From: an uncultured candidate division Zixibacteria bacterium
Lineage (GTDB): Bacteria; Zixibacteria; MSB-5A5; GN15; FEB-12
Direction of reading: 5' to 3'
DNA: 64,000 bases
NCBI GenBank assembly: GCA_963735035.1
Contig: CAVTJJ010000006.1
Location: forward strand, 96,001-160,000
Part shown: piece by piece, positions 47,106-61,756 of the stretch
Numbering within the stretch: position 1 is the first letter of the stretch
Layout of the letters: each line of letters begins with the position of its first letter
Translations under genes and position numbers: made by a program
Notes under the pieces: generated by a model
The model's database searches: none
What the model saw: the letters and a program-made list of their open reading frames with translations, nothing else
What the model was told of the DNA's origin: nothing

Positions 47106-47462
47106 GTGTTTGAGGAGCTTTATCCGATTCTCTTTCTGCTGATTGTAGCGACCGTCCTGGCAGTCGCTTTTACAGTACTGTCTGTGCTGTTTGGTCGCCG
47201 CACCCGCCTTGGCAAGAAAAACCAGCCCTATGAATGCGGGATTGACCCGGTGGGAACCACCCGCGACCCGGTGCCGGTTAAGTACTTCATGGTAGCAATA
47301 TCTTTCATATTGTTCGATATCGAAATCGTCTTCCTGCTTCCGTGGGCGGTGGTGGCGCGCGATCTCGGTATGTTCGGATTCGGCGCCATCGCGGTGTTCG
47401 TGCTTCTCGTTCTCGTTGGCTATTTCTATGAATTAGGCAAAGGGGCCCTCAGATGGGACTAG
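47106..47462 (+). CDS. nuoA: NADH-quinone oxidoreductase subunit A
   Basis: PYECG, FILFDIE..FL.PWA, KGAL.W. Confidence 0.95.
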
Positions 47463-47959
47463 AAGAGAAGATTCCGGACTCAGTCATTCTGACCACGATG
47501 GACAAGATGGTCAATTGGGCGCGAAGGCGTTCAATGTGGCCGCTTGGTTTCGGATTGGCCTGCTGTGCGATTGAAATGATGGCCACGTTCATGTCGAAAT
47601 ATGACATGTCGCGCTACGGCATGGAAGTTTTCCGGCCTTCACCGCGTCAGGCCGATCTGATGATTGTGGCGGGACGGGTGTCGGTCAAGATGGCGCCGGT
47701 GATCAAGACCCTGTACGAGCAGATGCCCAATCCGAAATGGGTAATTTCGATGGGCGCCTGTGCCTCCTGCGGCGGCGTATTCAATAACTATGCGATTGTC
47801 CAGGGTGTTGATCGAATCATCCCGGTTGATATGTACGTTCCCGGCTGTCCTCCTCGGCCGGAGCAGTTGATGGATGCTATCCTGAAATTGCACGCGAAAA
47901 TAGACAAGGAATCTCTCAAGCAGAAGCATGAGGAGTGGGGCCGAGCGCTCCAAAGATAG
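47453..47959 (+). CDS. nuoB: NADH-quinone oxidoreductase subunit B
   Basis: [35 protein letters not shown]. Confidence 0.96.
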
Positions 47960-48022
47960 TCGGTAAGTCGGCCGGAATGTGATCCGTACGCGACCTCTTG
48001 TGAAGATTGGTGCAAGCGTTCG

Positions 48023-48538
48023 ATGGAAGATAAAGTAAGGCAGTGGCTTCAGAGTCGGTTCGCTGAAAGTATTGTCAGCGAGGTCAGCTTCCGGGGGCAA
48101 CAATCATTCTATGTCCGCCCTGAATCGATCTTCCCGATCTGCCAGGCTCTCGTTGAAGACCGCGAACTCGAAATAGGTTATCTGGCCGATATTACTTCCT
48201 GTGACTGGTTGGGACATGAGGCCGAGATGGGCGGGCGGTTTGAAGTCGTATACAACTTGTATAGTCTGTCCCACAAGTATCGATTCTTCCTCAAGGTCAT
48301 GTTGCCGGGTGACAACCCCCAGATCGCCAGCCTGACGCCTCTTTGGAATGGGGCCAACTGGCTCGAGCGCGAAGTCTGGGATATGATGGGTATTCGCTTT
48401 ACCGGCCATCCTGATCTTACGAAGATTCTGACCCCTGACGAACTCGAAGGTTTCCCGCTCCGTAAGGACTTCCCACTCACCTATGAGGTTCCCCAGTTTA
48501 ATTGGAACAAGGACCTGCCGCCGGAGGTGATCAAGTAA
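48023..48538 (+). CDS. nuoC: NADH-quinone oxidoreductase subunit C
   Basis: RFEVVYNL.S, ANWLERE.WD..GI.F.GHP, PLRKDFP. Confidence 0.95.
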   Translation: MEDKVRQWLQSRFAESIVSEVSFRGQQSFYVRPESIFPICQALVEDRELEIGYLADITSCDWLGHEAEMGGRFEVVYNLYSLSHKYRFFLKVMLPGDNPQIASLTPLWNGANWLEREVWDMMGIRFTGHPDLTKILTPDELEGFPLRKDFPLTYEVPQFNWNKDLPPEVIK

Positions 48539-49707
48539 TGGAAGCCCGGACCATACAGATCAACATGGGGCCGCAGCATCCGGCCACACACGGCGTACTC
48601 CGAGTCGAGTTGGAAATCGAGGGCGAGACGGTTGTCAAGGCCCGTCCGGTAATCGGCTACTTGCACACCGGGATCGAAAAGACAATGGAATCGAAGCTCT
48701 ATTACAAAGCGATTCCGTGCACCGACCGGATGGATTACCTCTCGCCGATGATGAACAATCTCGGGTACTGTCTGGCGGTCGAAAAGCTGATGGACATCGA
48801 GGTGCCGGAGAAGGTCAAATGGGCTCGGGTGCTTCTGGCGGAACTGACCCGAATCAAGTCGCATCTGGTCTGGCTCGGCACACATGCCATCGATCTGGGC
48901 GCCATGACCATGATCCTGTACGCTTTCCGCGAGCGCGAGATGATTATCGACATCTACGAAGCGTGCGCCGGCCAGCGCATGATGAGCACCTACATCAGAA
49001 TCGGCGGGCTCGCCGATGAACTCCCGCCGGATTTCGACAAGCTGGTCAGGAAGTTTCTGAAAGTCATGCCGGAGCGGATGAAGGATTACGAGAAGTTGCT
49101 TACCCGCAACCCGATCTTCATCCAGCGCACCAAAGGTGTGGCCGTGATATCGGCGGCCGACGCCCTCAACTGGTCGCTGTCCGGTCCGATGTTGCGCGGC
49201 AGCGGAGTCAAGAAAGACATCCGTAAGGATGAACCATACAGCGGGTACGAGAAATTCGATTTTGAGGTGGCCCTGGGTAAGAACGGCGATGCTTACGATC
49301 GGTATCTGCTCCGCCTGGAAGAGATGCGCCAGTCGCTCAGAATAATTCAGCAGGCGCTCGACGGAATGCCCCAGGGACCTTACCGGGCGCACGTTCCGGG
49401 AGTGGTGTTGCCGCCCAAGGAAGACATCCTGCACAAGATGGAATCGCTGATATTCCATTATAAGATTATCACCGAGGGTTTCAAGGCGCCGCGTGGTTCC
49501 GTCTATCAGGCGATCGAATCACCCAAGGGCGAGCTCGGTTTCTATATTGCCTCGGACGGCACCAACCGGCCCAACCGGATTCGCGTGCGGCCGCCGTCGT
49601 TTGTGAACCTGGCCGCGCTTCCGGCGCTGGTCGAAGGAAGGTTGCTGGCGGACGTCATTTGCGCCATCGGCACAGTGGATATCGTACTGGGAGAAGTCGA
49701 CCGATGA
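48538..49707 (+). CDS. nuoD: NADH-quinone oxidoreductase subunit D
   Basis: NMGPQHPATHGVLR, GYLHTG.EK, ESPKGE, DIVLGEVDR. Confidence 0.96.
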   Translation: MEARTIQINMGPQHPATHGVLRVELEIEGETVVKARPVIGYLHTGIEKTMESKLYYKAIPCTDRMDYLSPMMNNLGYCLAVEKLMDIEVPEKVKWARVLLAELTRIKSHLVWLGTHAIDLGAMTMILYAFREREMIIDIYEACAGQRMMSTYIRIGGLADELPPDFDKLVRKFLKVMPERMKDYEKLLTRNPIFIQRTKGVAVISAADALNWSLSGPMLRGSGVKKDIRKDEPYSGYEKFDFEVALGKNGDAYDRYLLRLEEMRQSLRIIQQALDGMPQGPYRAHVPGVVLPPKEDILHKMESLIFHYKIITEGFKAPRGSVYQAIESPKGELGFYIASDGTNRPNRIRVRPPSFVNLAALPALVEGRLLADVICAIGTVDIVLGEVDR

Positions 49708-50198
49708 TGCTCACCGCTGAATCAGTGGCCCGCATCAAGGATGCGGCGTCGAAGTATCCCCAGGTGAAGTCGGCCGTTCTCCCGGCTCTGACGATTGCCT
49801 ATCGGCAGGTAGGTCATTTGAACGATGACATCTACGAGGAGATATCCCAGACGCTGGGCATACCGGCCGGGGAAATCGCCGAGGCGGCGTCGTTCTATAC
49901 CATGTTCCCCAAGCAACCGGTAGGGAAGTATCTCATTCAGGTCTGCCATAACATCTCCTGCTCGCTTCTGGGGGCGGAGAGTCTGATTTCTTATCTCGAA
50001 CAAAAGCTCGGTGTCCAGGTCGGCGAAACCACCCCCGACAATTTGTTCACGATCGTGCGGGTGGAATGTCTCGGCTCTTGTGCGACCGCGCCGATGATGC
50101 AGATCAATCATGATTACTACGAGAATCTGACTCGCAAGAAAGTCGACTCCGTTCTGGATCAACTTCGGTCGGATGCCCGCGCGGGAGGGAAACAATGA
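49704..50198 (+). CDS. nuoE: NADH-quinone oxidoreductase subunit E
   Basis: SFYTMF, VCHNISC, ECLGSC..AP. Confidence 0.94.
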   Translation: MMLTAESVARIKDAASKYPQVKSAVLPALTIAYRQVGHLNDDIYEEISQTLGIPAGEIAEAASFYTMFPKQPVGKYLIQVCHNISCSLLGAESLISYLEQKLGVQVGETTPDNLFTIVRVECLGSCATAPMMQINHDYYENLTRKKVDSVLDQLRSDARAGGKQ

Positions 50199-51541
50199 GT
50201 TTCTACTCTCCCGTCAGAACGAACGCGTCCGAGGTGGCAGCATCAGAGGTGCTGCACTTGTTCCGTTATGTCGAAGACCCCGATCAGCCTAAGATCGCCA
50301 CATACGAGTCTCATGGTGGTTACACAGCCTGGAAGAAAGTTCTCAGTTCGATTACCCCCGAGCAGGTCACGGCCGAAGTCAAGAGTTCAGGTCTGCGTGG
50401 ACGTGGCGGAGCCGGATTCCCGGCCGGTATGAAGTGGGGATTCATCCCCAAAGATTCTACCAAACCGCGCTATCTGGTATGCAACGCTGACGAATCCGAG
50501 CCCGGCACGTGCAAAGATCGAGTACTAATGGAGCGTGACCCCCACGCCGTAATCGAAGGCATGGCGATCGCTTCGTTTGCAATCGGCTGCCATACGATGT
50601 TTATCTACATCAGGGGCGAATTCGGTTTCTCGATTGATGTCATGCGAACGGCGGTTGAAGAAGCGTACAAGAAGGGTCATCTCGGGAAGAACATCCACGG
50701 CAGCGGCTACGATCTGGAAATGGTCGTTCATAGCGGCGGCGGGGCTTATATCTGCGGTGAAGAAACTGCGCTACTAAATTCCCTCGAAGGCAAGCGCGGC
50801 AACGCGCGCATCAAGCCGCCTTTCCCGGCCGTAGCCGGACTGTATGATAGTCCAACGATTATCAACAACGTGGAAACTCTGGCAACCGTCCCGCACGTGA
50901 TCAATCGCGGGGCGGCGTGGTATCGCACTCTTGGCACCGAGAAGTCGACCGGCACGAAGATATTCAGCTTGTCCGGCCATGTGAAACAGCCCGGCAACTA
51001 TGAACTGATCCTGGGTCATTCTCTCAAAGATTTGATTTACTCGCCCAAGTACGGTGGCGGAATTCTTGGTGATAAGAAGCTGAAGGGTGTCATTCCGGGG
51101 GGATCATCCACACCGTTCTTGAGACCGGACCAGATTGATATTCCGCTCGATTATGAATCGCTATCCACAGCCGGTTCGATGCTTGGTTCGGGCGCGGTGA
51201 TAGTTTTCCACGAGGATACCTGTATCGTCTGGATAATAGCCAACCTGATCCGGTTCTATCGCCACGAATCGTGCGGCAAGTGTACGCCGTGTCGCGATGG
51301 CACAGGCTGGCTCCAGCAGATTATCAATCGCATCGAGGCCGGTGGCGGTCGACCAGGCGATATACAGAAGATAGAATCAATTTGCGGAAATATCTTCGGG
51401 CGAACCGTTTGCCCGCTGGGTGACGCGGCGGTGATGCCGATTCAGTCGGCGGTCAAGCAATACCGCGACGAATGGCAGTATCATATCGACCATGGCAAGT
51501 GTATGGTTGAATCGAAGTTTACGATGGCGGAAGGTGTCTGA
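50195..51541 (+). CDS. nuoF: NADH-quinone oxidoreductase subunit F
   Basis: GLRGRGGAGFP, NADESEPGT.KDR, GAYICGEETAL, HESCGKCTPCR, CPLGD. Confidence 0.96.
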   Translation: MSFYSPVRTNASEVAASEVLHLFRYVEDPDQPKIATYESHGGYTAWKKVLSSITPEQVTAEVKSSGLRGRGGAGFPAGMKWGFIPKDSTKPRYLVCNADESEPGTCKDRVLMERDPHAVIEGMAIASFAIGCHTMFIYIRGEFGFSIDVMRTAVEEAYKKGHLGKNIHGSGYDLEMVVHSGGGAYICGEETALLNSLEGKRGNARIKPPFPAVAGLYDSPTIINNVETLATVPHVINRGAAWYRTLGTEKSTGTKIFSLSGHVKQPGNYELILGHSLKDLIYSPKYGGGILGDKKLKGVIPGGSSTPFLRPDQIDIPLDYESLSTAGSMLGSGAVIVFHEDTCIVWIIANLIRFYRHESCGKCTPCRDGTGWLQQIINRIEAGGGRPGDIQKIESICGNIFGRTVCPLGDAAVMPIQSAVKQYRDEWQYHIDHGKCMVESKFTMAEGV

Positions 51542-54108
51542 TGGCTGAAGCTGTGAAACAAGATCAAGCTCCGGCTGTCGCTCGTCCGACCGTCACATTC
51601 ACGATAGACGGCCGTCAGGTCACGGTCCCCAAGGGAACGACTATTCTGCTGGCCGCCAAACAGGTCGGAATTGACATTCCCACGTTCTGCTGGCACCCGA
51701 AGCTGAGCATTGAAGGCGCCTGCCGGATGTGTTATGTCGAGATCGAAAAGTGGCCCAAGCTGGCTATCTCGTGCGCTACCGAAGCTATGGACGGCATGGT
51801 CGTCTACAGTAATTCCGAGAAAGTGAAGGAAGGCCGGCGCGCCGTCATAGAGTTCACCCTGTTGAATCACCCGCTCGACTGTCCGACCTGCGACAAGGGT
51901 GGGGAGTGCACGCTTCAGGACCTGACGTTCGCGCACGGCTTTGATGACTCGCGCTTCGATTTTCGCAAGAACCGATTTGGGGTACAGGAATCACAGACGA
52001 CCTTTGACGATGTCAAGATCGGCCCCGAGATAATTCTCAATCGGAACCGCTGTATCAGGTGTTATCGTTGCGTCCGTGCGAACAAAGAAGCGTTTGGCGA
52101 ATACGATCTGGGAGCATTTGAGCGCGGCGATCACACCGAAATCAATGCCGCTCCCGGCCGTCAGGTTGACAATCCGTTTTCGGGTAATCTAGTTGAGATT
52201 TGTCCGGTCGGCGCCCTTACCAATACCGACTGGCGCTATAAGATAAGAGTCTGGCTGACCCAGACCGTTTCGTCAATTTGTCCGTTCCATAGCTCGGGCA
52301 CGAATACTCTGATCTACAATAACGGCACCCGGGGACGCATCTTTCGCGTGACTTCGCGGCCCAATGATGAAATCGACGATGGCTGGCTGACCGATCTTAC
52401 CCGCTACGGGTATCAGATGGTCACGTCCGATGATCGCCTGCGCACACCACTCATCAAGAAGGGTGGAAAGCAGGTCGAGGCCGACTGGAACGAAGCCCTA
52501 TCAGTGATCGGCGAACGACTGACCGAAATAATCGAGAAGAAGGGCCGGGTCTGTGTCGGTGGGTTGGTTTCGCCGTCTTTGGACAACGCCTCACTTTTCG
52601 GATTCTCAAAGCTGTTCCGTACCGTGCTCGGCTCGAACAATATCGATTCACGCACCGACTATCGCATGTTGCCGGTGTTGCCGGGCGGAGCTTATGATAT
52701 TCTCTGCAGCCAGCGCTTCAAGATCGCCGATATTGACTCGTCCGATGTCATCTTTACGCTGGGTAGTGATCTGATCAGGGAGCATCCGAACGAATACCTG
52801 CGCATGCGCCGGGCGTTCAACATTAAGGGTGCGACCATTTACGCGGCCAATCCGTACGGTACCAAATCTGCCGATATCGCGCGCACCGAGCTCGTGTACA
52901 AAGCCGGCACCGAAGAAATACTGCTCAACGGTATCTGTCTGGCGGCTATCGAAGACAAGCTGATTGACGCCGGGCGGATTGGCGACCTGCGCAAGAAGAT
53001 TTCTCCTACGACGGCGGCAGACGCCGCCCGGCTCGCAGGTGTCGAAGCTGGTCTGCTTCATGAAGTCGCGGCGGCGCTTGTGCGCGGCCGCAAGATCACC
53101 CTCTTTGCAGGTGAAATAGTCAGCCGTTCCCGCGACCGCGAAGCTATTGCCGCGGCGCTGTGTAACTTGATCCGACTTTTTGGTATCAACGATAAAGGCC
53201 AATTTGCAGTTCTGCCGCGCTATGCCAATTCCCGCGGCGCTCGCGACCTCGGCCTGGCCCCGAATCCTGCCGAGCCGGTGAAGAATTGTCTGAGAGAGCT
53301 CTGGGGTGACTGGCCCGAGGTTCAGCCGCTTACATCCGACCAAATGATGGTCGGTATGAAGAAGGAAGAAATCAACGGCTGCCTGGTGATTGGCGCCAAT
53401 CCGGTGATGTTGTATCCGGACCGCGAATTTGCCCACGACGCCCTGGAAGGTTTGGATTTCCTGGTCGTCGCTGATATGTACGAGACCGAGACCACGGCCC
53501 TGGCCGATGTGGTTCTGCCGCTGTCATCATGGGCTGAGTACGACGGCTACTATGTCAATTTGGAAGGTCGGACGCAGTTGGCCGGGCGCGCCATGCCCCC
53601 CAGATTCAAGTCGAAGCCGGGATACGAAATAGCTGACCTCATTGGCAAGCAGCTTGGTGTCGACTTGTTCGAATCACTCGAACAGCGGGATGATATGATA
53701 AGTAAAGTCCTGGCTGTGGATTCAGTCACGGCATTGCCCGGTACGTATCTCGAAGTCAAGACGACCCCAGACGAGGCCGGCAAAGAATATCCTATCGCCC
53801 TTTTTGTTGGCGATGATGCTCATCACAGCGGTCACTTGACCGAGAAGGCGATGTCGCTGGTCAATTTCTGCAGTGAAGCTTATGTCGAGATGTCGGCCGC
53901 TCTGGCGAAGCGCCTGAAGCTCGAAACCGGAGATTCGGCCAGGATTGAATCGGAGACGGGCAAACTGATTGTCCAGGTGAGGATAGTGCCGCACATGACT
54001 GGTGACGCCGTGTTCGTTCCGCGAAATTTCTCCGCGTCTCCGGTAAACTCGCTTATTATGCGCAAGCGGCGGGTCGACTGGGTTAAGATCAGCAAGGTTG
54101 TAGGTTAA
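51541..54108 (+). CDS. nuoG: NADH-quinone oxidoreductase subunit G
   Basis: IPTFC.H...GACRMC.VE...C, NHPLDCPTCDKGGEC.LQD, CIRCYRC, ICPVGAL; molybdopterin-oxidoreductase-like C-terminus. Confidence 0.93.
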   Translation: MAEAVKQDQAPAVARPTVTFTIDGRQVTVPKGTTILLAAKQVGIDIPTFCWHPKLSIEGACRMCYVEIEKWPKLAISCATEAMDGMVVYSNSEKVKEGRRAVIEFTLLNHPLDCPTCDKGGECTLQDLTFAHGFDDSRFDFRKNRFGVQESQTTFDDVKIGPEIILNRNRCIRCYRCVRANKEAFGEYDLGAFERGDHTEINAAPGRQVDNPFSGNLVEICPVGALTNTDWRYKIRVWLTQTVSSICPFHSSGTNTLIYNNGTRGRIFRVTSRPNDEIDDGWLTDLTRYGYQMVTSDDRLRTPLIKKGGKQVEADWNEALSVIGERLTEIIEKKGRVCVGGLVSPSLDNASLFGFSKLFRTVLGSNNIDSRTDYRMLPVLPGGAYDILCSQRFKIADIDSSDVIFTLGSDLIREHPNEYLRMRRAFNIKGATIYAANPYGTKSADIARTELVYKAGTEEILLNGICLAAIEDKLIDAGRIGDLRKKISPTTAADAARLAGVEAGLLHEVAAALVRGRKITLFAGEIVSRSRDREAIAAALCNLIRLFGINDKGQFAVLPRYANSRGARDLGLAPNPAEPVKNCLRELWGDWPEVQPLTSDQMMVGMKKEEINGCLVIGANPVMLYPDREFAHDALEGLDFLVVADMYETETTALADVVLPLSSWAEYDGYYVNLEGRTQLAGRAMPPRFKSKPGYEIADLIGKQLGVDLFESLEQRDDMISKVLAVDSVTALPGTYLEVKTTPDEAGKEYPIALFVGDDAHHSGHLTEKAMSLVNFCSEAYVEMSAALAKRLKLETGDSARIESETGKLIVQVRIVPHMTGDAVFVPRNFSASPVNSLIMRKRRVDWVKISKVVG

Positions 54109-54112
54109 CGCG

Positions 54113-55096
54113 ATGCTGGAATTCGTTCTCATAGCGTCGATCAAGGTCATCGCGGTGATTCTTGTCTTGCTGACCGGGTGCGCCTACTCGACCTACATGG
54201 AGCGCAAAGTGGTGGCATTCATGCAGCACCGTATCGGTCCGCTCTATGCCGGACCGTACGGATTACTTCAGCCGGTAGCAGATGCTATTAAACTGATCTT
54301 CAAGGAAGACCTTGTCCCAGATAAGGCGGAGCGATTCGCATATACGATTGCCCCGATGATATCGTTTATGCCGGCGGTGCTGGTTTTCGCCGTAGTGCCG
54401 TTCTCGAGTGATTTCTCGCTCTTTGGCCGACATATTTCGGGCGTTATCTCGGACCTAAATATCGGCGTGCTCTGGGTGTTTACGATTGGATCGCTCGGCG
54501 TATATGGCACGATTTTGGCGGGCTGGTCGAGCGGATCGAAATATTCACTAATGGGCGGGCTGCGCGCCTCGGCGCAGACGATATCGTATGAACTGGCCTA
54601 TGGGCTTTCTATCGTTGGCGTAATCATATTAGCCAACACCCTGTCGATGACCGAGCTGGTGGCCAAGCAGGCGACGATTGCTGATTGGTATATCTGGAAA
54701 CAACCGCTCGGTTTCGTGCTGTATTTCATCTGCGCCATCGCCGAGACCAATCGGTCGCCGTTCGATCTGCCCGAAGCGGAATCGGAACTGGTGGCCGGTT
54801 ATATGACCGAGTATTCATCGATGCGGTTCGCGACGTTCTTCATAGGCGAATACGCTCATATGATCGCGGTTGGCGCGGTCGGGTCGACTCTGTTCTTCGG
54901 GGGCTGGCAGGGGCCGTGGTTGCCGCCGATTCTCTGGATGGTCATCAAGGTGTTCCTGTTCATCTTCGTCTATATCTGGATTCGCTCGACCCTGCCGAGG
55001 TTCCGGTATGACCAATTGATGAATTTCGGCTGGAAAGTGCTGTTCCCACTGGCCGTGTTGAATACACTTATTACCGGTTTGATTGTGGTATGGTAG
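54113..55096 (+). CDS. nuoH: NADH-quinone oxidoreductase subunit H
   Basis: ERKV...Q.R.GP, GLLQP.AD.IKL..KE, AETNR.PFDLPEAESELVAG, PRFRYDQLM. Confidence 0.96.
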   Translation: MLEFVLIASIKVIAVILVLLTGCAYSTYMERKVVAFMQHRIGPLYAGPYGLLQPVADAIKLIFKEDLVPDKAERFAYTIAPMISFMPAVLVFAVVPFSSDFSLFGRHISGVISDLNIGVLWVFTIGSLGVYGTILAGWSSGSKYSLMGGLRASAQTISYELAYGLSIVGVIILANTLSMTELVAKQATIADWYIWKQPLGFVLYFICAIAETNRSPFDLPEAESELVAGYMTEYSSMRFATFFIGEYAHMIAVGAVGSTLFFGGWQGPWLPPILWMVIKVFLFIFVYIWIRSTLPRFRYDQLMNFGWKVLFPLAVLNTLITGLIVVW

Positions 55097-55125
55097 GGCA
55101 TTAGCAGCGGCTATCGACAAATTGT

Positions 55126-55632
55126 ATGAAAGAACTCTTTAGAACATTAGTCGACACGTTCGTAAAGATGCCGCAAGGTTTTGCGGTGACGTTTCGGCAT
55201 ATGTTCAAACGGCCGGTCACTCTGGATTACCCGCGCAAGCGGGAACCGATGTCGCCCCGATACCGTGGGCTGCACTATCTGGAGCGTTATGAGGACGGCT
55301 CGGAGCGCTGTGTCTGCTGTGGGCTGTGTGCGGCGGCCTGTCCGGCCGATGCCATCTACATGGAACCGGCTGAGAACGAAAAAGGGGAGCGGTACGCCAA
55401 GATTTACGAAATCAACATGATCCGCTGTATTTTCTGCGGTTTTTGTGAAGAGGCCTGTCCCGAGGAAGCTATATTCCTCGGACGCGAATATGAGTTTGCC
55501 ACCGACAACCGGGACGGTTTCATTTACTCGAAAGAACAATTGCTGGTGCCGTATCCGAGAAAAGAGAATCCGTTCAAGAAGTTGATCAGACGGGTGCGGA
55601 AAGTTTACGGAGTTCCGGAAAGCCACCGATGA
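55126..55632 (+). CDS. nuoI: NADH-quinone oxidoreductase subunit I
   Basis: RCVCCGLCAAACP, RCIFCGFCEEACP. Confidence 0.95.
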   Translation: MKELFRTLVDTFVKMPQGFAVTFRHMFKRPVTLDYPRKREPMSPRYRGLHYLERYEDGSERCVCCGLCAAACPADAIYMEPAENEKGERYAKIYEINMIRCIFCGFCEEACPEEAIFLGREYEFATDNRDGFIYSKEQLLVPYPRKENPFKKLIRRVRKVYGVPESHR

Positions 55633-56201
55633 ATCTCGACTTGATCATGTTTACAGTGTCCGCCGTCGTGGCGGTTTTTGGCGCGACCATGATGATTGCC
55701 CAGCGCAGTCCGGTGGCGTCGGTACTGTACATGATTCTGTCTCTGGTTGCGCAGGCGGTGTGCTACGTGCAGCTCGGGGCACTCTTCCTGGGGGCGATCC
55801 TGGTCGTGGTCTACGCGGGCGCTATCATGGTGCTGTTCCTGTTCGTTATCATGCTGTTGAATCTCCGGGGCAGTGAAGACCTGGGCGCCGCACCGCCGCC
55901 TTTGAGCCAGTTGACCAAGTATATCTTTGCGGTGCTGCTCACGTTGGAGCTGGTCTTCATAGTCAAGGCAGCACTTCTGGCGCAGACAACGACAGGAATC
56001 CTCGAAACGCCGGCCGATGGTTTCGGCTCGGTACAGTCTGTCGCAAAAAGCCTGTTCACCGACTATCTGTATCCGTTCGAACTGACCGGTGTTCTCCTGC
56101 TGGCCGCCGTAGTCGGAGCCGTGGTTATTGGCAAGAAACGCCGACTTCTCGATGCGGGTGATGGACAGGCAGACACTACCGCCGGGGAGACAAAGGAGTA
56201 G
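55629..56201 (+). CDS. nuoJ: NADH-quinone oxidoreductase subunit J
   Basis: VYAGAIMVLFLFVIMLLN, YPFEL. Confidence 0.94.
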   Translation: MNLDLIMFTVSAVVAVFGATMMIAQRSPVASVLYMILSLVAQAVCYVQLGALFLGAILVVVYAGAIMVLFLFVIMLLNLRGSEDLGAAPPPLSQLTKYIFAVLLTLELVFIVKAALLAQTTTGILETPADGFGSVQSVAKSLFTDYLYPFELTGVLLLAAVVGAVVIGKKRRLLDAGDGQADTTAGETKE

Positions 56202-56202
56202 C

Positions 56203-56505
56203 ATGGTACCAATATCGGCATTCCTGGTTCTGGCAGCGGTGTTGTTCGGTATTGGAGCGATCGGCGTGCTCATCACACGCAATATGATCGTGCTCTTTAT
56301 GTCTGTCGAGATGATGCTCAACGCCGCCAACCTGGCGCTGATGGCCTTCTCGCGGGCGCTTAATATTGTCGACGGTCACGTAATCGTATTTCTGGTGCTG
56401 ACGATAGCCGCCGCGGAAGCCGCGGTTGGCTTGGCTCTGATAGTAATGGTTTACCGTAATCGCGAAACGATCAACATCGACCGCTTTAGTCTGATGAAAT
56501 GGTAG
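56203..56505 (+). CDS. nuoK: NADH-quinone oxidoreductase subunit K
   Basis: RN...MSVEMMLNA.N, AAAEAAVGLA; RBS AAGGAG. Confidence 0.95.
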   Translation: MVPISAFLVLAAVLFGIGAIGVLITRNMIVLFMSVEMMLNAANLALMAFSRALNIVDGHVIVFLVLTIAAAEAAVGLALIVMVYRNRETINIDRFSLMKW

Positions 56506-56516
56506 GACGTTCGTAG

Positions 56517-58457
56517 ATGGCTGACCTGCTTTTCCTGATTCCACTATTACCGCTGGCCGGGTTTCTAATAAACGGCCTGTTGCTGGGCCGTCTGCCCAAG
56601 CCGGTGATCAGCCTGGTGGCGTGTGGATCAGTAGGGCTGTCGTTCCTCTTGTCCCTGGCGGCCTTCTACAATCTGGCGTCGATGCCGTCGGACGCCCGCC
56701 AGATGACGCAGACCTTGTTCACCTGGATATCCTCGGATCTTCTGCACGTGAATTTCGGTTTCCTGCTCGACCCGCTGTCGGCGGTAATGATTCTTGTGGT
56801 CACCGGAGTAGGCTTCCTCATTCACGTTTATTCCATCGGTTACATGAGCCACGACCACGGTTACGGGCGATTTTTCGCCTACCTGAATCTGTTCATGTTC
56901 TCGATGCTCGTGCTGGTTCTGGCCGACAATTTCCTCTTGCTCTTCGTCGGTTGGGAAGGGGTGGGCCTATGCTCGTACTTGCTGATTGGGTTTTGGTACG
57001 AAAAACAGTCTGCGACTGACGCCGGTAAGAAGGCGTTCATCGTCAACCGGATCGGCGATTTTGGCTTCCTGCTCGGCATGTTTATCATCTTCTGGAATGT
57101 TGGATCGCTCGATTTCATAACGGTCTCGAAGATGGCTCCGGAAGTGTTTGTGGCGGGCGGTGGTCTGATTACCGCGACCGGTCTACTGCTGTTCCTCGGA
57201 GCGTGTGGTAAATCGGCGCAGCTTCCGCTGTATGTCTGGCTGCCGGATGCGATGGAAGGCCCCACGCCGGTCTCGGCCTTGATTCATGCGGCCACGATGG
57301 TGACGGCCGGTGTCTACATGCTGGCGCGCACCAACGTGCTGTTCCTGATGGCGCCTGATGCCCTGATGGTGGTAGCTGTCGTTGGTGCTGCGACGGCCCT
57401 ATTTGCGGCGAGCATCGGTCTGGCGCAAAACGATATCAAGAGAGTGTTGGCGTACTCGACCGTCAGTCAGCTCGGCTATATGTTTCTCGCCTGCGGTGTG
57501 GCGTCGTTTACGGCCGGTATCTTCCACCTGATGACCCACGCCTTCTTCAAGGCGCTTCTGTTTCTTGGGGCCGGATCGGTCATTCACGCCATGTCCGGAG
57601 AGCAGGACATGCGCAACATGGGCGGTCTTAAGAGCCATGTGCCGATTACGTTCCGGACGATGTACATAGCGACTCTCGCCATTGCGGGAATTCCGTTCTT
57701 TGCCGGGTTCTTCTCGAAGGACGAAATTCTCTGGAAGGCGTATTCTTCGCCCATGCACGGCGGCTGGTTGTTCTGGTTGGTCGGTGTGGCCGGTGCGGCG
57801 CTGACCGCATTCTATATGTTCCGTCTGATCTATCTGACTTTCTATGGCTCCGAGCGGATGAGTTCCGAGGTCAAGCACCACTTGCACGAGTCGCCCAAGA
57901 CGATGACCATACCGCTGGTGGTGTTGGCGGCGCTTTCGGTTGTCGGCGGATTCGTGGGTATCCCTGGTACGTGGGGACTGCCCAACCTCTTTGAAGAATG
58001 GCTGGCGCCGGTGATGCACGGCCACGCTCAGGCCGCGGCCGAACACGCATTGGCGTCAACAGGAGAATCTGCTTCGGAAGAACTGACTCTCATGTTGCTG
58101 TCAATCGCGGTCGTGCTAACTTCGATTTATATGGCTCGGTATTTCTATAAGAAGAACCTCACGGCGGCTACCAGCCTGGCTTCAAAGTTGAGTGGTGTTC
58201 GTACTGTTCTGGCCAATAAGTACTATGTGGACGAGATCTATGGCGCCGTGATCATTCGGCCGCTGGTCTATTTCTCGGTCTTCTTGTGGAAGATAGTTGA
58301 CGTCATTATCATAGATGGCACTTTGAACGGTCTGGCGGTGGTCTGGGGCGAAGTGTCCAACACTCTACGCTTCAGTCAGTCCGGACAGTTGCGCAGTTAT
58401 GCTACGATATTCTCGGTGGGCGTAGTGATACTGATCGCCTATTTCATGTTTGGATAA
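56517..58457 (+). CDS. nuoL: NADH-quinone oxidoreductase subunit L
   Basis: GWEGVGLCSYLLIGFW, GKSAQLPL.VWLPDAMEGPTPVSALIHAATMV, THAFFKALLF. Confidence 0.96.
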   Translation: MADLLFLIPLLPLAGFLINGLLLGRLPKPVISLVACGSVGLSFLLSLAAFYNLASMPSDARQMTQTLFTWISSDLLHVNFGFLLDPLSAVMILVVTGVGFLIHVYSIGYMSHDHGYGRFFAYLNLFMFSMLVLVLADNFLLLFVGWEGVGLCSYLLIGFWYEKQSATDAGKKAFIVNRIGDFGFLLGMFIIFWNVGSLDFITVSKMAPEVFVAGGGLITATGLLLFLGACGKSAQLPLYVWLPDAMEGPTPVSALIHAATMVTAGVYMLARTNVLFLMAPDALMVVAVVGAATALFAASIGLAQNDIKRVLAYSTVSQLGYMFLACGVASFTAGIFHLMTHAFFKALLFLGAGSVIHAMSGEQDMRNMGGLKSHVPITFRTMYIATLAIAGIPFFAGFFSKDEILWKAYSSPMHGGWLFWLVGVAGAALTAFYMFRLIYLTFYGSERMSSEVKHHLHESPKTMTIPLVVLAALSVVGGFVGIPGTWGLPNLFEEWLAPVMHGHAQAAAEHALASTGESASEELTLMLLSIAVVLTSIYMARYFYKKNLTAATSLASKLSGVRTVLANKYYVDEIYGAVIIRPLVYFSVFLWKIVDVIIIDGTLNGLAVVWGEVSNTLRFSQSGQLRSYATIFSVGVVILIAYFMFG

Positions 58458-58460
58458 GCG

Positions 58461-60047
58461 ATGGACAATATATTCTTGACATTGGTGACGTTCATGCCGC
58501 TTCTCGGGGCGGTGTTGCTGCTGTTTGTCCCGCGCGAGAGAGATGATACGGTCAAAGGCGTAGCGCTGATCATATCATTCATAACGCTTTTGCTGTCCAT
58601 CGCGATCTTCAAATTCTTCGATCCAAACGCCACCGGCATGCAGTTCTCCGTCGATGTGCCCTGGGTGCTTTCGCTCGGCATTCATTATCATATGGGTATC
58701 GACGGCATCTCGCTTCTGTTGATCGTGCTGACCAGTTTCCTGACGGTCCTGTGTGTGATAGCCTCGTGGAACTCGATCAAGCACGGTGTCAAAGGCTTCT
58801 ATATTTCGCTGCTGCTACTGACGACCGGGATGATCGGCGTCTTCTGTGCGCTGGACCTGTTCCTGTTCTATGTCTTCTGGGAAGTCATGCTGATTCCGAT
58901 GTATTTCATCATCGGCGTCTGGGGTGGCCCTAGGCGGGTCTATGCCGCCATCAAGTTCGTTCTGTTCACGATGTTCGGCTCGGTGCTGATGCTGGTGGCG
59001 ATACTGTACGTCTACTTCCAGTATCAGACCTATTCGGGCGAGTATACGTTTGATTTGCTGAAGTTGACCGCGATGCCATCACTGGCTGTCCAGCCCCAGT
59101 TGTGGCTCTTTGGAGCTTTCGCCCTGGCCTTTGCGATCAAGGTGCCGCTGTTTCCGTTCCATACCTGGTTACCCGATGCACATGTTCAGGCGCCTACCGT
59201 GGGTTCGGTCATTCTTGCGGGTGTACTGCTAAAGATGGGAACCTACGGTTTCTTGCGTATTTGCATGCCGCTCTTCCCGGAGGCGACGGTCATCTACTTG
59301 CCCTATATATGTGTCCTCGCGTTAATTGCAGTTGTGTATGGGGCGCTGGTGTCGATGGTCCAGCGGGACATCAAGTCACTGGTGGCGTTCTCTTCCGTGT
59401 CGCACATGGGCTTTATCATGCTCGGCATGTTCGCGCTCAATATTCAGGGGATGGAGGGCGCGGTTCTTCAGATGGTCAATCACGGGATTTCCACGGGAGC
59501 GCTCTTCTTGATCGTGGGCATGATCTACGAGCGGCGCCACACGCGGATGATTGAGGATTTCGGTGGCATAGCCAAGGTGATGCCGGTATTTGCTGTCTTC
59601 CTGATGATCTTTACGCTCTCGTCAATCGGCTTGCCTCTTACGAACGGGTTTGTGGGCGAGTTCCTGATTCTGCTGGGGGCGTTCAAAGCGAATACGACAT
59701 ACGGCGTTATTGCGGCCAGCGGCGTGGTTCTGGCCGCTTGCTATATGCTCTGGATGTATCAGCGCGTCATTTACGGCAAGATTACCAAGCCGGAGAACGA
59801 GAAACTGACCGATCTCACCGCTCGCGAGAAACTGGTGCTGATTCCTCTGGTCGTAATGGTGTTCTGGATCGGAGTGTACCCGTCGACCTTTACTTCGCGC
59901 ATCGAACCCGCGGTGAAACAGATATTGACTCAGGTAGCGCCCGCGCGGGCTGCCGAGCAGATACTACCCGCAGTAAAAGACCTGCGAGCCGGTGATGCAC
60001 CCACTGATTCGCTTCCGGCGGTAGTCGTGTCAGAGGTGTCGAAGTGA
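58461..60047 (+). CDS. nuoM: NADH-quinone oxidoreductase subunit M
   Basis: FWE..L.PMYF, KVP.FPFHTWLPDAHV.AP, LLKMG.YG, SSVSHMG, GF.GEF. Confidence 0.96.
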   Translation: MDNIFLTLVTFMPLLGAVLLLFVPRERDDTVKGVALIISFITLLLSIAIFKFFDPNATGMQFSVDVPWVLSLGIHYHMGIDGISLLLIVLTSFLTVLCVIASWNSIKHGVKGFYISLLLLTTGMIGVFCALDLFLFYVFWEVMLIPMYFIIGVWGGPRRVYAAIKFVLFTMFGSVLMLVAILYVYFQYQTYSGEYTFDLLKLTAMPSLAVQPQLWLFGAFALAFAIKVPLFPFHTWLPDAHVQAPTVGSVILAGVLLKMGTYGFLRICMPLFPEATVIYLPYICVLALIAVVYGALVSMVQRDIKSLVAFSSVSHMGFIMLGMFALNIQGMEGAVLQMVNHGISTGALFLIVGMIYERRHTRMIEDFGGIAKVMPVFAVFLMIFTLSSIGLPLTNGFVGEFLILLGAFKANTTYGVIAASGVVLAACYMLWMYQRVIYGKITKPENEKLTDLTAREKLVLIPLVVMVFWIGVYPSTFTSRIEPAVKQILTQVAPARAAEQILPAVKDLRAGDAPTDSLPAVVVSEVSK

Positions 60048-60265
60048 GCAACGTGACGATATACACCAAAGTTGGTTGCCCTTACTGTGCCGCGGCGAAA
60101 AAGCACTTTGCCGAACAAGGCATTGCATTTGATGAGATCGATGTGCACCAGACACCTGGCGCGAAGGACAAATTGAATCAGCTCAGCGACGGCCGCAATA
60201 TCGTTCCGGTAATTGTAGAGAATGGCAAAGTAACGGTTGGATTTGGCGGTGGTTGAGGAATATAG
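60044..60265 (+). CDS. Glutaredoxin-like UXX-star (seleno)protein; in-frame UGA at 60254-60256 probably read as selenocysteine
   Basis: IYTK.GCPYC, VPVIV..G...VGF, then GGG-TGA-GGA-ATA-TAG giving ...GFGGG-U-GI*; SECIS-like hairpin downstream. Confidence 0.8.
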
Positions 60266-60288
60266 GACGGGTGGCGGTCGCCACTATT
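60257..60288 (+). promoter_or_regulatory. Putative bacterial SECIS element
   Basis: GGUGGC-GGUC-GCCACU hairpin (60270-60285); G-first loop begins 19 nt after the UGA. Confidence 0.65.
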
Positions 60289-60289
60289 A

Positions 60290-61756
60290 GTGAGTACGAT
60301 GGTTGATTACGTTTCAGCGCTCTCGATTGATCTGAATCTGGTGTATCCGGAGATTGCACTGGTGATCGCCTCGTTTGTGTTGCTGGCCATAGCCTGTGTC
60401 CGGCGACTGAACGCAGCTGCTCCGTGGGTGACTCTGCTGGCTTATCTGGTCGTGCTCTGGTTGGTGATAAATCAGTGGGATCATCAGGGTTCCGGCTTTA
60501 GTGACATGGTGCTGTGTGACAATTTCGGCATCATGTTCAAATTGATTTTCGTGTTCACCTCAATCGTAACCGTCCTGCTGGCCCAGGATTACATGAAAGG
60601 GCGCGGACTCGACCTGCCCGAGTTCTATGCACTGATGCTTATGTCCACCTGCGGTATGATGGCCATGGCCAACACCGCAGACCTGGTGGTCATGCTGATC
60701 GGGCTTGAAGTTATGTCGGTGCCGCTGTATGTCATGGCCGGGTTCGATCACCGCTCGCTCAAGTCCAACGAGGCGGGCGTCAAGTATTTCATGATGGGAG
60801 CGTTTTCGTCGGCCTTCCTCCTGATGGGTATTGCGCTGATCTACGGCGCAACTGAGACTACAAATCTGCGACGGATCGTCACTGATTTCAGCTATCTCGC
60901 TTATCATCAGGAATCGTCGGTATATATTATGGCCGGGGCGATCCTGGTCCTGGTCGGTTTTGGGTTCAAAGTTGCAGCGGTGCCATTTCACAGTTGGGTG
61001 CCCGATGTCTATCAGGGAGCGCCGACCCCGGTGACCGCATTCTTCTCGGTGGCTCCAAAAGCGGCCGGGTTTGCGGTATTGCTGCGGATCTTTGTTTTCG
61101 GCTTCTCCGGTCTGGGAGACCTCTCAACGGTCTTCTGGGTGCTCGCTGTATTGACAATGTCGCTGGGGAACATCCTGGCACTGCGGCAGGACAATATCAA
61201 ACGGATGCTGGCCTATTCCTCAATTTCACACGCCGGCTACGTGCTCGTAGCATTGGCGGTGGGAGGACCTGAGGCAGTCAGCGCCGCCATTTTCTACCTG
61301 TCGGCCTATGCCATGTTCAATCTGGGTGCTTTTGCCGTAGTCACTCTCTTGGAGAACGGCGCGGGACGCAAAGCCGATTTCAGCGAATTGACCGGCATGT
61401 CCAAGGTTCATCCGTATCTGACCGCAGTACTCGCGCTGTTCATGTTCGCGTTAGCCGGATTTCCACCAACAGCCGGGTTCTTCGGAAAATTCTTTCTCTT
61501 TTCGGCGGCCGTGCGCTCAGGTTTCATCTGGTTGGCCGTGTTCGGCGTGCTCAATTCATTCGTGTCGGTCTATTTCTATCTGCGAGTCATCAAGGTGAGT
61601 TACTTCGACACGAGCGAAGAGCCGTTTGAAAAGGCGAGACTGTCACCGGCCATGCTGGTAGCCCTGGCGATAACCGTGATCGGCACGCTGGGCGTCGGCC
61701 TAATGCCGCACCAACTGTTGAGTATGTCTGTGGCGGCCATATTCGGCCTGCCGTAG
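60290..61756 (+). CDS. nuoN: NADH-quinone oxidoreductase subunit N
   Basis: EFY, LEV.S.P.Y, EA..KYF..GA, FKV..VPFH.W.PDVYQGAP, KRMLAYSSI.HAGY; alternative ATG at 60299. Confidence 0.95.
   Translation: MSTMVDYVSALSIDLNLVYPEIALVIASFVLLAIACVRRLNAAAPWVTLLAYLVVLWLVINQWDHQGSGFSDMVLCDNFGIMFKLIFVFTSIVTVLLAQDYMKGRGLDLPEFYALMLMSTCGMMAMANTADLVVMLIGLEVMSVPLYVMAGFDHRSLKSNEAGVKYFMMGAFSSAFLLMGIALIYGATETTNLRRIVTDFSYLAYHQESSVYIMAGAILVLVGFGFKVAAVPFHSWVPDVYQGAPTPVTAFFSVAPKAAGFAVLLRIFVFGFSGLGDLSTVFWVLAVLTMSLGNILALRQDNIKRMLAYSSISHAGYVLVALAVGGPEAVSAAIFYLSAYAMFNLGAFAVVTLLENGAGRKADFSELTGMSKVHPYLTAVLALFMFALAGFPPTAGFFGKFFLFSAAVRSGFIWLAVFGVLNSFVSVYFYLRVIKVSYFDTSEEPFEKARLSPAMLVALAITVIGTLGVGLMPHQLLSMSVAAIFGLP

Follow-up and report, generated by a model that had tools for sequence, protein, structure and literature searches.

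Animal thioredoxin reductase carries a C-terminal Gly-Cys-Sec-Gly tail (Sec, selenocysteine) believed to relay electrons between a buried dithiol and the substrates, and small redoxins of the NrdH and BC3987 class are expected to be reduced by thioredoxin reductase, not by glutathione. In mitochondria, glutaredoxin 2 acts on glutathionylated subunits of complex I, and NDUFA2, which has a thioredoxin fold, is an accessory subunit on the homologue of NuoG. In Escherichia coli, the selenocysteine insertion sequence (SECIS) of fdhF has the apical loop GGUC, whose G-U is contacted by SelB; it lies a short, fixed distance past the UGA, and its stem is free in sequence. Here, we examine a stretch of 64,000 nucleotides (the window) from the metagenome-assembled genome (MAG) of an uncultured candidate division Zixibacteria bacterium (96.9% complete; GenBank assembly GCA_963735035.1, contig CAVTJJ010000006.1, positions 96,001 to 160,000), in which a small glutaredoxin-like gene with an in-frame TGA (60044..60265, forward strand) lies between nuoM and nuoN in an operon for complex I. 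A preliminary description, made from the letters of the window, had proposed that this gene encodes a selenoprotein and that its product is a redox factor for complex I. The comparative data set out below make it highly probable that the gene does encode a selenoprotein with a recoded UGA.

The protein family in question is already known; the operon context seems to be undescribed. NCBIfam catalogues the family under NF041212 ("Uxx-star family glutaredoxin-like (seleno)protein"), with the sub-models NF041114, NF041211 and NF047338 and with NF045501 for the HUGP/GUXX-star fusion. UXX-star families 1 and 2 and the HUGP/GUXX-star fusion are entered in Table 1 of a 2026 review (PMC13188914), where Zhang & Gladyshev 2008 and Haft & Tolstoy 2025 are cited; as summarised in that review, sub-family 1 has a UxxT motif and two Sec residues, and the window protein lacks both. 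We found no report of a selenoprotein encoded inside a nuo (complex I) operon in the literature searched, Haft & Tolstoy 2025 lying outside that search.

A Uxx-star glutaredoxin gene

The gene starts at a GTG (60044) that overlaps the stop codon of nuoM (TGA, 60045-60047), with the Shine-Dalgarno sequence GAGG positioned 7 nt 5' of it, and it continues for 70 codons to the residues GFGGG before meeting TGA (60254-60256), GGA, ATA and finally TAG (60263-60265). With the TGA read as a sense codon, this gives 73 codons followed by the TAG stop. A CPYC redox motif occupies residues 12-15 (60077..60088) and is invariant in 30/30 aligned relatives. The preliminary description had set out the same 70-codon frame, with its CPYC motif, its overlap with nuoM and its GFGGG-TGA end, and everything it said of the sequence here was correct.

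Against NF041212, the 70-residue form of the protein scores 110.1 bits (cut-off 66), well above the level needed for the UXX-star assignment proposed earlier. Reading through the TGA raises the score to 117.3 bits and brings the whole profile (1-70/70) into alignment. The Pfam model Glutaredoxin (PF00462) is matched with 60.5 bits. Among the sub-models, that of sub-family 1 (NF041114, cut-off 72) is passed narrowly by the read-through form (75.6 bits, with 68.7 bits for the 70-residue form), and the scores for sub-families 2 and 3 both fall below their thresholds (80.1 bits against 100 for NF041211, and 71.8 bits against 97 for NF047338). The models for classical glutaredoxins are also below their cut-offs, TIGR02181 for example giving 53.6 bits where 90 are required. 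These profile matches strongly support the prediction that 60044-60265 encodes a 73-residue, cytoplasmic protein of glutaredoxin fold belonging to the catalogued Uxx-star family.

Evidence for selenocysteine at the in-frame UGA

Three samples of loci were compared: 30 loci that come from the window and from 29 relatives in its order (sample A), 80 public loci, the best of 590 that were confirmed (sample B), and 20 loci from further families of the phylum (sample C). These 130 loci reduce to 112 distinct ones once duplicates are removed, and in 90 of the 112 the gene stands in nuo context (86 complete loci and four cut by contig ends). The public search used two patterns, one of which demanded a Cys codon at the column of the UGA.

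All 112 distinct loci have TGA at the Sec column, and the number with a Cys codon (TGT/TGC), TAA or TAG is zero. The preliminary description had called for homologues carrying either TGA or Cys at this position; it is TGA throughout, no Cys homologue aligned with the UGA was found in the 112 distinct loci, and the pattern that required Cys yielded none of the best 80. The "(seleno)protein" of the family name implies that Cys forms exist elsewhere. The U-x-x layout is retained as well. In each of the 90 nuo-context loci, two sense codons, never more or fewer, separate the TGA from a stop, which is TAA in 46, TGA in 25 and TAG in 19, and the same U-x-x-stop arrangement recurs in 20 of the 22 loci outside nuo context, the other two having three residues after Sec. 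Among the 90 endings, GFGGGUGF is the commonest (42), followed by GFGGGUGI (17), GFGGSUGY (9) and GFGGSUGF (7), with others rarer. The codon after the TGA specifies Gly in 28/30 loci and all four Gly codons are used; given this synonymous variation, the stretch past the TGA behaves as coding sequence.

A different account of the locus would let a 70-residue glutaredoxin end at the TGA, and would see in the hairpin beyond it only an intercistronic stabiliser or processing site. Public gene calls agree with it, since the NCBI/ENA entries for this protein and for two relatives are unnamed 70-residue open reading frames that end at the TGA. Set against this are the fixed identity of the codon, which TAA and TAG never replace, the second stop exactly two codons on, the Gly codon in between with its synonymous changes, and the additional 7 bits that NF041212 gains from the tail.

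The hairpin itself occupies 60270..60285 and consists of a 6-bp stem, GGUGGC (60270-60275) pairing with GCCACU (60280-60285), around a GGUC loop (60276-60279) whose first G lies exactly 19 nt after the UGA. Two results for the hairpin weigh against its being a SECIS that works on this gene. Folded as a single sequence it is no better than chance (z = 0.38 for a 71-nt fold, with 121/200 shuffles equally stable), and an Rfam scan of 59900-60500 with E up to 10 returned no family. Among the sequencing runs listed, none of RNA contained the stretch, which turned up only in two DNA runs with word shares of 0.06 and 0.04.

The comparative evidence is of another kind. In a covariation test on the 30 loci of sample A, with 500 shuffles and slid-partner controls, the six stem pairs were formed in 93.9% of cells; shuffling left 73.3%, and sliding the partner 23-58%. 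Compensatory double changes were seen at 6/6 stem pairs, in 41 cells altogether, and 0/500 shuffles reached the observed covariation score. It is this comparative covariation that places the hairpin far above chance, despite the insignificant fold of the single sequence. Across the 90 nuo-context loci, a simple hairpin finder recovered a stem of at least 4 bp in every case and of at least 6 bp in 83; the loop begins 12-23 nt past the UGA (mode 21) and includes GU in 84 loci, with GGUC in 37. The SECIS-type hairpin with a G-first loop 19 nt downstream, as first described from the window, is thus exact in its geometry, and it is conserved and covarying in relatives.

In 25 of the 90 nuo-context loci (including L020, L031, L032, L034 and L036), two UGAs stand nine bases apart, of which the first is Sec and the second the stop. 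That the second UGA, though nearer the hairpin, acts as a stop fits a distance-dependent signal, and these loci are a neat illustration from nature of how the SECIS distance rule works.

The genome holds a complete set of genes for making and inserting Sec. selA (511 bits) and selB (328 bits) are side by side at C6:290312-293537, selD (394 bits) is at C3:544642-545568 and tRNA-SeC at C6:279330-279426, so the search for Sec genes that had been proposed beforehand finds selA, selB, selD and tRNA-Sec all present. The selD gene is itself that of a selenoprotein, with its own in-frame TGA (...ACAGUASKLG...). It provides an internal control, as a 7-bp hairpin with a GU-containing loop begins that loop 20 nt after the selD UGA, a geometry like that at the glutaredoxin gene. 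With complete machinery, a conserved loop and UGA-loop distance, and a stem that covaries, we consider it very improbable that the TGA is simply a stop. On the favoured reading of the UGA as Sec, SelB would engage the GGUC hairpin with the ribosome on the UGA, Sec would be inserted as residue 71, and two further residues (Gly-Ile in the window) would be added before termination at TAG 60263-60265.

Conservation of the locus across the phylum

The order nuoM-glutaredoxin-nuoN is found in 30/30 loci of sample A, in 58 of the best 80 public loci and in 20/20 loci from further families. The order is thus conserved in 90/112 distinct loci, and the possibility that the gene is unique to the window's assembly was rejected, as it occurs in relatives and in public loci. 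The preliminary description had itself named absent Sec machinery with homologues that stop at the Gly run, and an assembly-specific insertion, as outcomes that would undo it; both were examined and neither is the case.

We surveyed 285 genomes of the phylum for NF041212 and selB, and found matches above cut-off in 191/285 and 257/285, respectively. The gene is single-copy wherever copies were counted, with one match above cut-off per genome in 39/39 genomes. Families that are without it show what the operon looks like when the gene is absent: nuoM directly adjoins nuoN in 5/5 sampled genomes, one per family, and the collinear A-N order is seen in 3/5 of these deep stretches as well as in 19/20 stretches that carry the gene. 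As these families keep nuoM and nuoN adjacent in a collinear A-N operon, the gene appears to be an insertion into an older operon. Comparison of these loci strongly supports its having been inserted between nuoM and nuoN of the operon for the 14-subunit, NADH-oxidising complex I and kept as a Sec gene across most of Zixibacteria.

Several public MAGs whose nuoM-glutaredoxin-nuoN loci cluster with Zixibacteria bear the submitter labels Ignavibacteria, Ignavibacteriales, Calditrichota or Deferrimicrobium. Some of the MAGs submitted as Ignavibacteria or Calditrichota belong to the same GTDB phylum, and at least one is placed in the window's class. In the relatives G034 (C450:2808-2996) and G021 (C16:127100-127288), there is a second, weaker glutaredoxin-like match of about 46 bits, below the cut-off, and these second matches also contain an in-frame TGA; they may belong to a further family of Zixibacteria redoxins with Sec.

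Predicted structure and redox chemistry

An AlphaFold2 model based on a 30-sequence alignment shows a compact glutaredoxin fold (predicted local distance difference test score, pLDDT, 92.2). Its elements run strand-helix-strand-helix-strand-strand and the chain stops directly past strand 4, leaving the model without the C-terminal helix of classical glutaredoxins. The best Foldseek matches are BC3987, glutaredoxins and NrdH, at template modelling (TM) scores of about 0.8. The invariant residues, G11, the CPYC motif, A17, A18, G50, V54, cis-Pro55, V63, G66, G69 and U71, are those expected, from the alignment, of an active redox site.

These features bear on whether the protein could be a structural accessory subunit, that is, a thioredoxin-fold protein stably bound to complex I in which Sec serves as a metal ligand or a redox-sensing one. 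The compact and confidently predicted fold is compatible with such a part, and the position in the operon, the overlap with nuoM and the absence of promoter-like or terminator-like sites would imply stoichiometric co-expression. What is invariant, however, is what a functioning redox centre needs, namely CPYC, cis-Pro, the run of Gly and the Sec residue; we identified no additional conserved surface, and the gene is dispensable in one close relative and in five families (see below). We regard a purely structural role as improbable.

No gshA, gshB or GCS2 was found in the 96.9% complete genome, which, going by its gene content, seems unable to make glutathione; trxB, for thioredoxin reductase, is present (358 bits). 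An NrdH-like redoxin fed by thioredoxin reductase is for these reasons likelier than a glutathione-dependent enzyme, and the protein would then be recharged by thioredoxin reductase. Its CPYC motif and flexible, Gly-rich Sec tail could together form a three-chalcogen relay, in which a selenenylsulfide between Sec71 and Cys12 would be resolved by Cys15. We put this chemistry forward tentatively, as a possibility suggested by the model and the invariant residues.

The DSSP assignment on the model gives isolated two-residue bridges at I53-V54, before cis-Pro55, and at U71-G72, and we infer that the two may pair with each other. If they do, the Sec-Gly tail would lie where the Cys-Gly of bound glutathione lies, near Cys12. 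The tail would on this hypothesis occupy the glutathione groove of the protein that carries it and pair, as bound glutathione does, with the Ile-Val before cis-Pro; if true, this would make a self-contained and very fast three-chalcogen unit for a phylum without glutathione.

The nuo operon and the start of nuoN

The glutaredoxin gene is co-directional with a 14-gene operon (47106..61756, forward strand), in which an NCBIfam scan assigns 14 open reading frames to NuoA-N in order, NuoE, F and G included. On either side of the gene are nuoM (58461..60047, 528 residues; TIGR01972, 653 bits), whose stop TGA overlaps the GTG of the glutaredoxin, and nuoN (60299..61756, 485 residues from ATG 60299; TIGR01770, 451 bits). 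Two starts had been suggested for nuoN, and homology to relatives beginning M-(V/I)-D-Y supports ATG 60299 and not GTG 60290. No promoter-like or terminator-like site was found in a scan between nuoM and nuoN. The hairpin was also considered as an intrinsic terminator and rejected as such, the T run being absent and the terminator scan empty.

NuoM has a C-terminal extension of some 35 residues (window 59937-60044, residues ~493-528) past the TIGR01972 match, which covers 6-492 of 528. The extension is also found in G011, a genome without the glutaredoxin gene. A second nuo operon in the same genome (C3:413259-423256) encodes 11 subunits (A, B, C, D, H, I, J, K, L, M and N) and is without E, F and G; the glutaredoxin gene is absent from it and its nuoM and nuoN are adjacent. 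The matches to nuoL, nuoM and nuoH in this paralogous operon are fragmented, which could reflect frameshifts or merely patchy similarity.

The preliminary description had placed the SECIS in the initiation region of nuoN and suggested that Sec read-through might tie the synthesis of NuoN to selenium supply. The closeness stands: the hairpin ends 13 nt before ATG 60299, and, in gaps extrapolated from tblastn alignments, the distance is about 7-28 nt in 80/86 loci. Read-through of the UGA would, in such a scheme, melt the hairpin and promote initiation at nuoN, and selenium or SelB would tune NuoN and hence the output of complex I. Judged from general ribosome footprint sizes, a ribosome that has reached the terminal stop would sit over the 5' arm of the stem, and one at the UGA would not. 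The control itself fares less well. The Shine-Dalgarno sequence of nuoN (GUGAG, 60289-60293) lies outside the stem, the gap widens to 42-186 nt in the other six loci, and short intercistronic gaps are normal in the nuo operon. Coupling of this kind would be compatible with the other roles considered here, and we judge it unlikely.

A proposed functional link to complex I

We propose that the protein is co-produced with complex I and acts as a small thiol/selenol redox helper, which would repair or protect oxidisable thiols or iron-sulphur ligands of the complex, or clear peroxide derived from its flavin. A functional link to complex I is, in our judgement, modestly favoured by the genomic context, because the gene has long kept its position in the NADH-oxidising operon and is found nowhere else in these genomes. 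Of the earlier proposal of a complex I redox factor, the conserved gene order is well supported by the 90 loci; the suggested work in assembly, repair or regulation has gene order as its sole basis.

A number of observations tell against this link, and the first of them concern where the gene is missing. It is nearly absent from several families that carry selB, namely f14 (gene in 1/20, selB in 15/20), f16 (0/10 and 10/10), f17 (0/14 and 14/14), f19 (0/3 and 3/3) and f20 (2/15 and 12/15). The idea that the gene is lost where Sec is lost was accordingly rejected, since these families retain selB. In G011, a member of the window's own family that is 97% complete and has selB, about 46 nt separate nuoM from nuoN, and the whole genome contains no glutaredoxin-like gene; this close relative has lost the gene. 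A second genome of the order is without a match, and there a contig breaks inside nuoN, so it is uninformative. Taken together, G011 and the five families mean that the gene is dispensable for the operon, and, with the 11-subunit paralog also without it, the gene does not occur wherever the enzyme does.

The wider family points the same way. All 22 distinct loci outside nuo context come from other phyla (Actinomycetota, Chloroflexota, Bacillota and others), where the neighbours are P-type metal ATPases or heavy-metal-associated (HMA) proteins at four loci and otherwise sensor kinases, SelB, an AhpC-like gene, rhodanese and assorted enzymes; as every member from another phylum is found in another context, complex I is not what the family as a whole is tied to. 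In one Anaerolineae MAG (L118), the Uxx-star gene (2501-2719) lies two genes downstream of selB (142-2106). A quick tree of the 112 glutaredoxin sequences (73 columns) needs four changes to account for the nuo-context genes, of which well-supported branches force only one, and its resolution is too low to decide whether they arose once.

Nor do the subunits of complex I offer a clear target. We surveyed Cys residues in all 14 Nuo subunits, comparing 20 operons that carry the gene with 3-5 deep lineages that do not. There is no conserved Cys in NuoN, the one conserved Cys in NuoM is shared with the lineages lacking the gene, and neither NuoM nor NuoN has a Cys conserved only in lineages that carry it. 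Weak and phylogenetically confounded candidates are NuoF 96 and 106, NuoD 90, NuoG 338 and NuoH 23. Residues 96 and 106 of NuoF (window 50195-51541) fall in the flavin-site motif YLVC-NADESEPGT-C-KDR. At the variable position of EPGT-x-KDR, Cys is present in 19/20 operons with the gene and Phe in 3/3 deep lineages without it, a contrast that has one exception and is confounded by phylogeny, and the Cys form of this motif is common in organisms that have no such gene. Cys106 of NuoF may thus be considered a weak lead as a target thiol. A prediction of NuoN in complex with the 70-residue glutaredoxin, run on single sequences without alignments, scored 0.00 where the mark is 0.34, a result that speaks neither for nor against binding.

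The nuo-embedded copy is moreover the sole glutaredoxin-like gene in the window's genome, which makes a general role possible. The protein could be a genuine selenoprotein with a general job, as a redoxin, an NrdH-like reductant or a binder of mercury, arsenic or cadmium, that merely rides on a strongly and steadily expressed operon. The neighbours of the members from other phyla would suit such a job, as would the suggestion, in the review's treatment of the UXX-star proteins, that their Sec may be a metal ligand (PMC13188914). So would the want of a lineage-specific Cys in NuoM and NuoN, and the operon that G011 kept after losing the gene. Against it, the position between nuoM and nuoN has been held in 90/90 loci of the phylum while NuoN identity drops to about 42%, and neutral gene order rarely survives so long. 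The gene is never found in the 11-subunit operon or elsewhere, each of the 39 genomes has a single copy, and where a lineage is without it no substitute copy exists, which speaks against its being an essential housekeeping gene. On balance we think a passenger with a general function unlikely, though it is the likeliest of the alternatives, and we retain the helper of complex I as our working reading.

Discussion

Put together, the account we favour, with some caution, is that of a selenoprotein that serves complex I as a helper and works through a Sec-containing relay. A more elaborate version, in which the Sec-Gly tail is a built-in selenium analogue of glutathione, the protein guards complex I with the NuoF Cys as a possible target, and read-through couples NuoN to selenium, strikes us as distinctly doubtful. 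The gene is always of the Sec form, never Cys, and is held between nuoM and nuoN across most of the phylum, which suggests that it serves the respiratory enzyme in a selenium-dependent way. The Uxx-star family is without a known function, and the nuo context allows that function to be tested against a defined enzyme. There is also a consequence for annotation. Since public gene calls cut the protein at the UGA and leave it unnamed at 70 residues, the count of selenoproteins for an entire uncultured phylum comes out too low at a locus that is among its most conserved.

Compared with the rest of the Uxx-star family, the window protein is similar in being small, in having an N-terminal CxxC on a glutaredoxin fold and a Gly-rich end, in placing Sec third from the C-terminus and in having its SECIS right past the stop. 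It differs in that its gene is fixed between nuoM and nuoN, whereas 22/22 members from other phyla lie elsewhere. The likeness to the fdhF SECIS of E. coli lies in the GGUC loop and in the short distance between UGA and hairpin. Unlike that element, the SECIS of the window stands past the gene's own stop, in the intercistronic spacer, which is a consequence of Sec being the third-last residue; no bulged U was identified in it, and it has no Rfam match.

As in animal thioredoxin reductase, Sec is carried on a flexible, Gly-rich tail near the end of the chain. The window protein is however a single thioredoxin-fold domain of 73 residues and not a flavoenzyme, and the partner thiol would be in the CPYC motif and not beside Sec. 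The redoxins of the NrdH and BC3987 class (1h75, 3zij and 3zit) are its best structural matches, with TM scores of 0.79-0.81 and a similar size, and their expected reduction by thioredoxin reductase suits a genome without gshA or gshB; they have neither the Sec tail nor the link to complex I.

The thiol control of mitochondrial complex I is eukaryotic, is based on glutathione or on structure, uses Cys proteins encoded outside any nuo operon, and is compared here with no claim of homology beyond the fold. What it shares with the present locus is a glutaredoxin or thioredoxin-fold protein attached, functionally or physically, to complex I. If the proposed role is true, the Zixibacteria selenoprotein would be a bacterial counterpart to the thiol-based control of the mitochondrial enzyme.

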